This document shows positions 907 through 1,383 of a stretch of 1,703 bases of DNA, piece by piece; position 1 is the first letter of the stretch; each line of letters begins with the position of its first letter. The stretch comes from Escherichia coli (GTDB lineage Bacteria; Pseudomonadota; Gammaproteobacteria; Enterobacterales; Enterobacteriaceae). The position numbers were made by a program, and so were the translations under genes. The notes under the pieces were generated by a model that was given only the letters and a program-made list of their open reading frames with translations, was not told where the DNA came from and did no database searches. Location: NCBI RefSeq assembly GCF_003334255.1, contig NZ_QOWU01000152.1. One strand, written 5' to 3'.

Positions 907-1383
907 ATGTTTATTGATTCAGAAAAACGACTGAAACAACTTTCAGATGAGGCAAAGAAAAACACCGAGGATCTCGAAGAAGCAAAGAAGAATTCAAGGT
1001 TTACACAGGTATCCCCAAAAGGTTGGGAACGCGTTCGAGAGCTGCTGAAGGATAGCCAAGGCATATCAGCACTGAAGCTGTACTCATTTTTAGCGGAGCA
1101 TATCGATCCTACGTGTGGCGCTGTCGTTGCGGATCAGCAATTCCTAGCTGAAAAACTTGGAGTTAGCAGAAGCACAATTATTCGGTGGCTCAATTACTTA
1201 GAATCAAAAAATGCATTAGTTAGAATCCCCGTTGCTGGTAAGGTTTGTGCGTATGCCCTCGATCCACATGAAGTCTGGAAGGGATACAACACTACGAAAA
1301 ACCATGCAGCGTTTGTCACTAAAACACTGGTCAACAAAGACGGTGATATTCAGCGCCGAATCATGGCCATGTTTTCAAATTGA
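907..1383 (+). CDS. Putative plasmid replication initiator, winged helix-turn-helix (RepL-like), 158 aa
   Basis: Only long ORF with a sensible context: ATG at 907 sits 8 nt after the Shine-Dalgarno AGAGGG (893-898), stop TGA at 1381-1383. The protein has a charged N-terminus and a central segment QQFLAEKLGVSRSTIIRWLNYLESKNALVRI, typical of an HTH recognition helix plus wing, followed by a YALDPHEVWKG-type motif. This layout matches small plasmid Rep/RepL-family proteins as I recall them. The family call is from memory of motif patterns, not from a search. Confidence 0.75.
   Translation: MFIDSEKRLKQLSDEAKKNTEDLEEAKKNSRFTQVSPKGWERVRELLKDSQGISALKLYSFLAEHIDPTCGAVVADQQFLAEKLGVSRSTIIRWLNYLESKNALVRIPVAGKVCAYALDPHEVWKGYNTTKNHAAFVTKTLVNKDGDIQRRIMAMFSN

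Follow-up and report, generated by a model that had tools for sequence, protein, structure and literature searches.

A G+C step in a cryptic 1.5-kb Escherichia coli plasmid lies at the probable seam between a replication cassette and a non-coding module of oriT look-alikes

Why does a plasmid of only 1.5 kb carry its single gene in a block of DNA markedly poorer in G+C than the remainder of the circle? The question is raised by a stretch of 1,703 nucleotides of Escherichia coli DNA (NCBI RefSeq assembly GCF_003334255.1, contig NZ_QOWU01000152.1), here called the window. A preliminary description had noted an A+T-rich rep gene inside a G+C-rich backbone and had offered two options: a mosaic origin, with a rep cassette from a lower-GC lineage joined to a G+C-rich module, or structural constraint on the non-coding part. 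Taking together composition, boundaries, homologies, the independent histories of the two parts and hairpin covariation, all of them direct observations, we find it very probable that the step marks the seam between two functionally and evolutionarily separate parts of a 1546-bp plasmid of the pKL1 family. The G+C-rich part, which had gone unrecognised, is a stack of oriT look-alikes together with a segment resembling a priming signal, and the step itself is an instance of ordinary plasmid modularity.

The window comprises one circular plasmid unit of 1546 bp and a 157-nt wrap, positions 1-157 recurring at 1547-1703 at a spacing of 1546. Hundreds of complete circular plasmids of 1538-1552 bp, from E. 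coli, Shigella and Klebsiella, match it at full length. The best match, E. coli pYLMB98b (NZ_CP073928.1; one annotated gene; typed by MOB-suite as ‘Col(MG828)’ and ‘mobilizable’), is 100% identical except for six T-to-A differences in the second wrap copy, none of which is present in any of six aligned relatives. A diversity-generating retroelement was considered as the source of these differences and rejected, on the grounds that all of them run from T to A, that no reverse transcriptase is present, that the first copy equals the reference and that the relatives lack the A variants. The first wrap copy includes a hairpin, GTCTGGGGAGAACCCCAGAC, at 8-27. Since the product of the only gene, repA, is identical to WP_000469298.1, the sole protein of pKL1, the window is a cryptic E. 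coli plasmid of about 1.5 kb belonging to the pKL1 family; a single gene on a circle of this size is likewise what is seen in that family, whose members are typed as Col(MG828). Such plasmids are already known, having been deposited hundreds of times, and work characterising the Rep protein dates back more than two decades.

The step, put at roughly 40% G+C for rep against 55-60% for its flanks in the preliminary description, is real. The repA open reading frame, correctly placed there with its ATG at 907 and its TGA at 1381-1383 (158 codons for amino acids), has 43.4% G+C, against 58.1% in 1-700 and 58.8% in 1384-1703. Within repA, G+C by codon position is 52/37/41%, with a GC3 of 40.9%, so that synonymous sites are A+T-biased too. 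Maximum-likelihood segmentation of the single 1546-bp unit with two breakpoints delimits a low-GC block at 712-1486, with 43.9% G+C versus 59.1% elsewhere; its log-likelihood ratio of 18.1 lies beyond all 200 shuffles (mean 5.1, maximum 10.9). The block is wider than the reading frame, since it includes the 195 nt at 712-906, which at 41.5% hold the lowest G+C in the circle, and about 100 nt at 1384-1486 (50.5%). The flanks are indeed G+C-rich, though their extent had been overestimated: because 1547-1703 repeats 1-157, independent flanking sequence amounts to about 850 bp and not to 1 kb. This redundancy, with six T-to-A changes unique to the second copy, also lends a little substance to the idea that the way in which the window was cut exaggerates the contrast, a G+C-rich wrap being counted twice and its second copy being laden with errors. 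We give that idea practically no weight, as the single unit still contrasts 43.9% with 57.7-59.1% and the ratio remains 18 against a shuffle maximum of 11.

Homology divides the circle at nearly the same places as composition does, the compositional breakpoints (712 and 1486) sitting 30 and 105 nt away from the homology breakpoints. The resulting parts are a replication cassette (683-1381; 699 bp, 43.9% G+C) and a non-coding module running from 1382 through the wrap to 682 (847 bp, 57.7% G+C). Searched separately by BLAST, rep and backbone have different relatives once copies of the whole plasmid are passed over, as the mosaic option had predicted; the two share their very closest matches only in the trivial sense that these are whole-plasmid copies. 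With rep, 523 plasmid records were recovered, 327 of them at 99% identity or more, followed by a tail of a few relatives at 70-83% in other plasmids of 1.2-3 kb from Escherichia, Raoultella, Salmonella, Providencia and Pseudomonas. The backbone (158-711) matched at least 5000 records, and the matches listed were mostly short pieces in mobilizable plasmids of ColE1 type and in large conjugative I-complex and IncX plasmids.

Several small plasmids carry the module next to an unrelated rep gene, at 88-93% identity. A RepL plasmid of 1902 bp (L024) matches the window at 1379-1546 and 1-682 (93%) and nowhere else significantly. Another, of 1597 bp (L006), matches at 1382-1508, 1515-1546 and 1-680 (88-97%), and its own rep encodes a different 146-aa winged-HTH protein that is 30% identical over 54 aa. 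In a 2464-bp plasmid with RepL and MobA (L014) the shared extent is shorter, from 1507 through the wrap to 423 (93-98%). The junctions of the module agree to about 2 nt across four rep contexts (the window, L006, L011 and L024), and this sharing of junctions beside other rep genes is why we describe the circle as a 699-bp cassette plus an 847-bp module. Relaxase-mediated nic-to-nic recombination was entertained as the origin of such sharp junctions and discarded, for the junctions lie outside the oriT look-alikes and not at nick sites. In carrier plasmids whose remaining DNA has as little as 36-41% G+C, the module stays at 55-60%.

The two parts have also diverged to different degrees. Among plasmids encoding an identical RepA, pKL1 included, the cassette differs from that of the window by 0.1-1.0% and the module by 7.6-10.2%, a gap of about 10-fold (Fisher p 4e-11 to 7e-20). 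Even in the near-identical L005 the cassette differs by 0.1% and the module by 1.9% (p 8e-4). Divergence is concentrated in 323-614. Conversely, a further plasmid, L007, resembles L004 in its module, but its control region and the 5' half of its rep are no more than 48-68% identical. The features of both parts are collected in Table 1.

Table 1. Features of the window, by position of their first nucleotide; a slash marks a junction
Feature	Positions	Strand	Remarks
First wrap copy	1-157		within non-coding module; 59.9% G+C; exact match to pYLMB98b
IncX4 intergenic-like segment	173-387		79-83% identical to region upstream of IncX4 initiator gene (L016, 3001-3215; L025, 31822-32026)
ColE1 ssiA (n'-pas)-like segment	318-419	+	placed and oriented with respect to bom as in plasmids of ColE1 type
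I-complex (R64-like, MOBP/NikAB) oriT look-alike, IncK2/Z allele	428-511	+	homology, motif and hairpin
Spacer between the two convergent oriT look-alikes	512-614		identity among relatives 84-91%; 8-nt deletion in L005
ColE1-type bom/oriT look-alike	615-682	-	left end of module
Left junction of module	ends at 682		...GACACCCCAAA/
G+C-rich hairpin at cassette start	683-711	+	z -2.9; conserved with cassette, absent from plasmids with other rep genes
Putative origin/operator/promoter region of repA	712-906	+	A+T-rich, 41.5% G+C
Possible weak promoter, TTGCAC-17-TTAGAT	835-863		read from sequence; missed by consensus scan
Shine-Dalgarno GAGGG	893-897		read from sequence
repA	907-1383	+	158-aa winged-HTH replication initiator; identical to pKL1 RepA WP_000469298.1
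Right junction	1382-1396		module starts directly after repA stop: ...TGA/GCCAGCGGCAGG
IncX4 (TaxC, MOBP) oriT look-alike	1397-1457	+	87% identical to IncX4 plasmids
Module remainder to wrap point	1458-1546		1487-1546 has 70% G+C; common to L006, L014 and L024
Second wrap copy	1547-1703		same DNA as 1-157, with six T-to-A changes

The cassette would be self-contained for replication, an A+T-rich putative origin and operator being followed by repA. The RepA sequence, 100% identical to the proteins of L001-L005, matches Pfam HTH_36 (3.5e-8) and, weakly, RepL (0.004); sequence searches of NCBIfam and the PDB returned generic HTH noise only and no solved relative. A T-rich stretch follows the hairpin at the start of the cassette. 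Further downstream, three exact copies of TGTCGCATCC at 774-783(+), 799-808(+) and 810-819(-), where 0.13 would be expected, form a strong palindrome (z -5.6) located 85-130 nt upstream of the repA start codon, and this palindrome also drew the only match of an Rfam scan of the window, a sub-threshold miRNA. Scans of the window for sigma-70 promoters and terminators yielded no promoter and two terminators at chance level, and exact scans found no match to the IHF consensus WATCAANNNNTTR and only one-mismatch DnaA boxes. PMC3832669, citing Burian et al. 2003, places the pKL1 oriV upstream of rep and describes Rep-binding sites and an IHF box within it. By extension of the pKL1 work, RepA would bind the TGTCGCATCC repeats, fire the origin and repress its own promoter. 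The A+T richness of the cassette would then combine an origin that must melt with a plasmid rep gene of typical composition.

The other half of the mosaic option, that rep came from a lower-GC lineage, is not supported. A cassette that had come in from beyond the Enterobacteriaceae, out of a taxon of low G+C, and had not yet ameliorated would account for the GC3 of repA, which is below the E. coli norm, and for partial nucleotide matches of about 75% between the 3' third of rep and plasmids of Vibrio and Shewanella. Nevertheless, the closest homologues of rep are all in small enterobacterial plasmids with 42-50% G+C, and no donor lineage emerges. More broadly, all close homologues (66-78% amino acid identity) come either from small plasmids of Raoultella, Salmonella and E. 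coli or from plasmids whose records name Providencia or Pseudomonas. G+C in these rep genes varies from 42% to 57% in step with the plasmid that carries them: the values of 56-57% belong to a Providencia plasmid with 59% G+C and to one with 65% that is recorded under Pseudomonas aeruginosa. Of 15 sequences examined, 14 have a rep that is lower in G+C than the rest of its plasmid, which marks a general property and not a sign of recent import. Such an import is, on this evidence, highly improbable; what survives of the mosaic option is the joining of a rep cassette to a G+C-rich module.

The module encodes nothing, and its recognisable elements would be cis-acting signals copied from other plasmids: an IncX4/TaxC oriT, an I-complex oriT, a ColE1 bom and an ssiA-like segment. 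The oriT assignments are of candidate sites, made from identity to relaxase-adjacent regions and from architecture. One candidate is the I-complex oriT look-alike, composed of a block of 24 nt (428-451), an inverted repeat with arms of 18 nt (457-474/477-494) and the octamer CATCCTGT at 496-503, which corresponds to the MOBP nick-region consensus CATCCTG/T (slashes in motifs denoting the nick). As the octamer starts 1 nt past the inverted repeat, a nick would be placed 8 nt beyond it, as in I-complex sites, where an inverted repeat is followed some 8 nt later by ATCCTG/Y. Over 84 nt the element is 96.4% identical to three IncK2/Z plasmids, in which it lies 16 nt upstream of the mobA(nikA)-relaxase gene, and it is matched at 95-99% by 391 records, mostly large conjugative plasmids. 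The hairpin is significant (z -4.2), with its nick region unpaired in the fold. In a comparison of nine alleles, taken from small as well as large plasmids, double compensatory changes occur at seven pairs of the stem, with no variation in the block or the nick region. Other members of the family carry other alleles: that of a 1551-bp type is 98.9% identical to DNA lying upstream of nikA-nikB in an IncI-gamma/K1 plasmid, and the hairpin allele of pKL1 matches at 92% another set of I-complex plasmids, one of which, on inspection, was also typed IncK2/Z.

The bom look-alike opens with the same 24-nt block and faces the I-complex element, so that the two candidate oriTs are convergent; the common block explains the inverted repeat I1. 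On the minus strand the order is GGGTGTCGGGGCGAAGCCCTGACC (676-653), an inverted repeat and then TATACTGG/CTTACT. Positions 617-680 are 100% identical to the ColE1-like plasmid pMRSN346638_5.3, at a site between rop and mobC, and at least 5000 plasmid records match the element. Its nick would be expected between 621 and 620, following the position reportedly given by Varsaki et al. 2003. The hairpin of bom folds no better than shuffles (z -1.7). An open reading frame at 547-714 was dismissed as a gene, since it overlaps bom and is hit by the 8-nt deletion in L005; the other reading frames are short, and no relaxase or mob gene accompanies repA in cis.

The ssiA-like segment is 74.8% identical over 103 nt to positions 3001-3102 of L017, which lie 120-220 nt downstream of an origin of ColE1 type (RNAI at 2328-2428), and its folds are not significant against shuffles (z -1.4 and -1.0). 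The ssiA/n'-pas priming site is described as lying just downstream of ori (PMC3167613). The partly overlapping IncX4 intergenic-like segment is suspected to be a priming or origin-associated signal.

In the IncX4 oriT look-alike an 11-nt inverted repeat (1398-1408/1429-1439) is directly followed by TATCCTGC, with the nick-region consensus TATCCTG/C at 1440-1447. The window and IncX4 plasmids have the core, GGACAATCA ... TTGACCATGATTGTCTATCCTGCATTG, in common without variation; their flanking sequences are unrelated. The hairpin of the element reaches a z of -3.2. Both MOBP octamers of the module are unpaired in the fold and lie about 1 nt past their inverted repeats, so that nicks would fall 7-8 nt beyond. 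The IncX4 plasmid pEC276_3 has two copies of the element: that at 2820-2874 precedes ddp1-taxC by about 50 nt, and that at 29607-29667 is beside rep. This placement matches the two IncX oriTs that have been described, of which one is close to taxC and the other close to the rep gene (PMC3402527, PMC3332091). Outside the recognised elements the module has about 350 bp of DNA (1458-1546, 1-172 and 512-614). Parts of this DNA turn up again in an IncF plasmid and, in a plasmid typed IncN, close to a RepA gene.

Could constraint in place explain the step with no mosaicism at all, the origin and rep drifting towards A+T while the non-coding part is held G+C-rich for stable single-stranded DNA hairpins? 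The elements are richer in G+C than their surroundings wherever they are found, which fits selection for stable hairpins: the I-complex oriT has 63% G+C both here and in IncK2/Z plasmids (context there 51%), the ColE1 pieces have 57-58% here and 57% in the ColE1-like plasmid (context 51%), and the IncX4 segment has 52% in a 42% context. Function alone could keep the module G+C-rich, so that the step need not stem from mosaic ancestry. The oriT hairpins are, in addition, significant and covarying, and the option of structural constraint is to this extent partly right, as is the mosaic one. It nonetheless leaves unexplained the sharp homology boundaries shared beside unrelated rep genes and the roughly 10-fold divergence gap between module and cassette. 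Moreover, the IncX4-type oriT core is not G+C-rich (44% here versus 33% in IncX4), and the 350 bp outside the elements are G+C-rich with no significant structure in the tests run. Constraint without mosaicism is accordingly an unlikely account of the whole. The preferred reading, a seam between separate parts, accommodates both sets of observations: since the pieces roughly keep the composition of their sources and are subject to hairpin constraint as well, the step reflects assembly from different sources plus continuing functional constraint, the G+C richness of the module being, on the model proposed here, inherited from hairpin-forming elements and maintained in them.

How such a plasmid would work we infer, for the oriT and ssi-like functions as for the action of RepA, from similarity to better-known replicons. 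The plasmid would behave as a hitcher, with a co-resident IncX4, I-complex or ColE1-Mob plasmid supplying the relaxase in trans and a conjugative helper supplying the mating pore. The relaxase would nick the matching oriT, the pore would export one strand, and the priming signal or signals would help to turn the transferred strand into duplex DNA. MOB-suite labels some carriers of the module ‘non-mobilizable’.

The closest known system is pKL1 itself (NC_002145.1; Burian et al. 1997-2003), which has the identical 158-aa RepA, a single open reading frame and the same repeats upstream of repA. It measures 1549 bp to the 1546 bp of the window, and the replication cassettes differ at 7 of 699 positions. 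The non-coding modules are 8.0% divergent, a figure that includes the different I-complex oriT hairpin alleles, IncK2/Z-like in the window. No paper describing oriTs of Col(MG828)/pKL1 plasmids was found in the open-access literature. Hitcher plasmids that lack a relaxase and carry several oriTs are, by contrast, an established concept, exemplified by pBuzz and pEC156. Moran and Hall 2019 describe pBuzz, 1982 bp in length, as a cryptic plasmid that a B/O plasmid mobilises and whose two oriTs are inversely oriented. pBuzz resembles the window in being tiny and cryptic, in having no relaxase and in having acquired more than one oriT from conjugative plasmids, and differs from it in having a rolling-circle or RepL replication gene in place of the pKL1 RepA. 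The module of pBuzz may be the same as that of the window, which 1902-bp RepL plasmids carry at 93%. In pEC156 and related plasmids of ColE1 type, look-alikes of F-type and R64-type oriTs permit mobilization by F and R64, as was established experimentally (PMC4743918). Like the window, pEC156 has orphan oriTs and no mob genes (PMC4743918); unlike it, pEC156 has an RNAI/RNAII replicon and cargo genes, and its set of oriTs is another one. By analogy, the module of the window would work in the way of the orphan oriTs of pBuzz and pEC156.

Comparison with ColE1/pMB1 is instructive for the label ‘Col’. The region downstream of ori there has ssiA and bom in the order and orientation of the ssiA-like and bom segments of the window, the latter identical over 64 nt; in the window, some 190 nt with the I-complex oriT look-alike intervene between the two, and RNAII, rop and mob genes are missing. 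Rfam models gave no RNAI match in the window at E-values up to 1 and did find RNAI in the ColE1-like comparator. Without RNAI the window is not a ColE1 replicon, whatever its label, and, the cognate relaxase and mob genes being missing, it is not a self-mobilizable ColE1-Mob plasmid either.

One extension of the preferred reading we put forward tentatively, as a possibility rather than the expected outcome. The 847-bp module might be a discrete, precisely bounded ‘mobilization cassette’ that moves between unrelated small replicons as a unit, while exchanges of its I-complex oriT hairpin, one allele for another, redirect the plasmid to the helper then in circulation (K2/Z, I-gamma/K1 or others). 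Movement as a unit is proposed because at least four rep contexts share identical junctions. Were this so, the ‘Col(MG828)’ replicon label would track the transfer module and not the replication gene.

As a discovery the step has little significance, and its value is to some extent practical. Our observations suggest that plasmids whose rep genes are unrelated may fall together under the ‘Col(MG828)’ replicon call. oriTfinder has been reported not to detect an oriT in an IncX4 plasmid (PMC10604428), and oriT mimics on small plasmids could help to locate the IncX4 oriT. For the biology of the family, a ‘cryptic’ plasmid of 1.5 kb that is common among clinical E. coli may ride on at least three families of helper plasmids, and the IncX4 and I-complex helpers include carriers of resistance genes (mcr-1 and blaCMY/ESBL types).

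The G+C-rich non-coding module of the plasmid is joined to its replication cassette at 682/683 and 1381/1382, and the same joining nucleotides of the module, within ~2 nt, recur with four different rep cassettes in a comparison of the window with the module carriers L006 and L024 and the comparison plasmid L011. Such repeated, precise junctions could go back to one ancient joining event, after which the module was homogenised, or could reflect a defined mechanism of exchange. The MOB-suite label “Col(MG828)” is borne by L006, L014, and L024, which have only the non-coding module in common with the window, their unrelated rep genes encoding RepL or another HTH protein, and it is not assigned by MOB-suite to the comparison plasmids L008-L011, which carry a homologous rep without a close module. 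The typing marker probably lies inside the oriT module and outside the replicon.

Homologues of RepA with 65-66% amino acid identity were also observed in two plasmids of ~3 kb and 59-65% G+C, namely Providencia pCAVP490-3123 (L012) and pP33-4 (L013), the latter taken from a metagenomic assembly and recorded under P. aeruginosa. In these homologues the N-terminus is longer and the C-terminal tail acidic. The G+C content of Providencia genomes is far below that of pCAVP490-3123.

Other G+C-rich stretches of the module, at 31-209 and, through the wrap, 1515-72, recur in two larger plasmids. In the 94-kb L029, which is IncN-typed, the match is 80% and lies ~400 nt downstream of a gene of the RepA family; in the 70-kb IncF plasmid L028 it is 96% and falls under a “hypothetical protein”. 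These stretches may constitute additional origin-associated or priming signals. The spacer between the two convergent oriT look-alikes carries an 8-nt deletion, at window positions 557-564, in 1538-bp relatives such as L005. The deletion disrupts ORF 547-714, which was therefore rejected as a gene.

The second copy of the wrap (1547-1703) differs from the first (1-157), which is identical to the reference, by six substitutions, every one of them T-to-A and five in a CT-to-CA context, including CCTGG-to-CCAGG. The A variants are absent from all six aligned relatives. These changes have the look of errors in the reads or in the assembly of the overlap, or else of deliberate alteration, and not of biology.

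Coordinates of the putative IncX4 transfer elements and of the wrap-copy substitutions
Feature	Sequence	Positions	Remark
Inverted repeat + TATCCTG|C element, two copies	L025 (IncX4 pEC276_3)	2820-2874, 29607-29667	located via the small-plasmid mimic
T-to-A changes	second wrap copy of the window	1624, 1628, 1646, 1658, 1688, 1691	

In an IncX4 mcr-1 plasmid, oriT was undetected by oriTfinder (PMC10604428). Both tabulated copies in pEC276_3 are good candidates for the oriT of IncX4 plasmids.

At the I-complex oriT look-alike, small plasmids carry at least four alleles of the hairpin (window 455-495 and homologues), one of them in L024. Three further alleles were compared with large plasmids, and each matches, closely or exactly, its counterpart in a separate I-complex plasmid; the differences among alleles are compensatory. 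Taken together, these matches and compensatory changes suggest helper-specific retargeting of the small plasmids' I-complex oriT hairpins.
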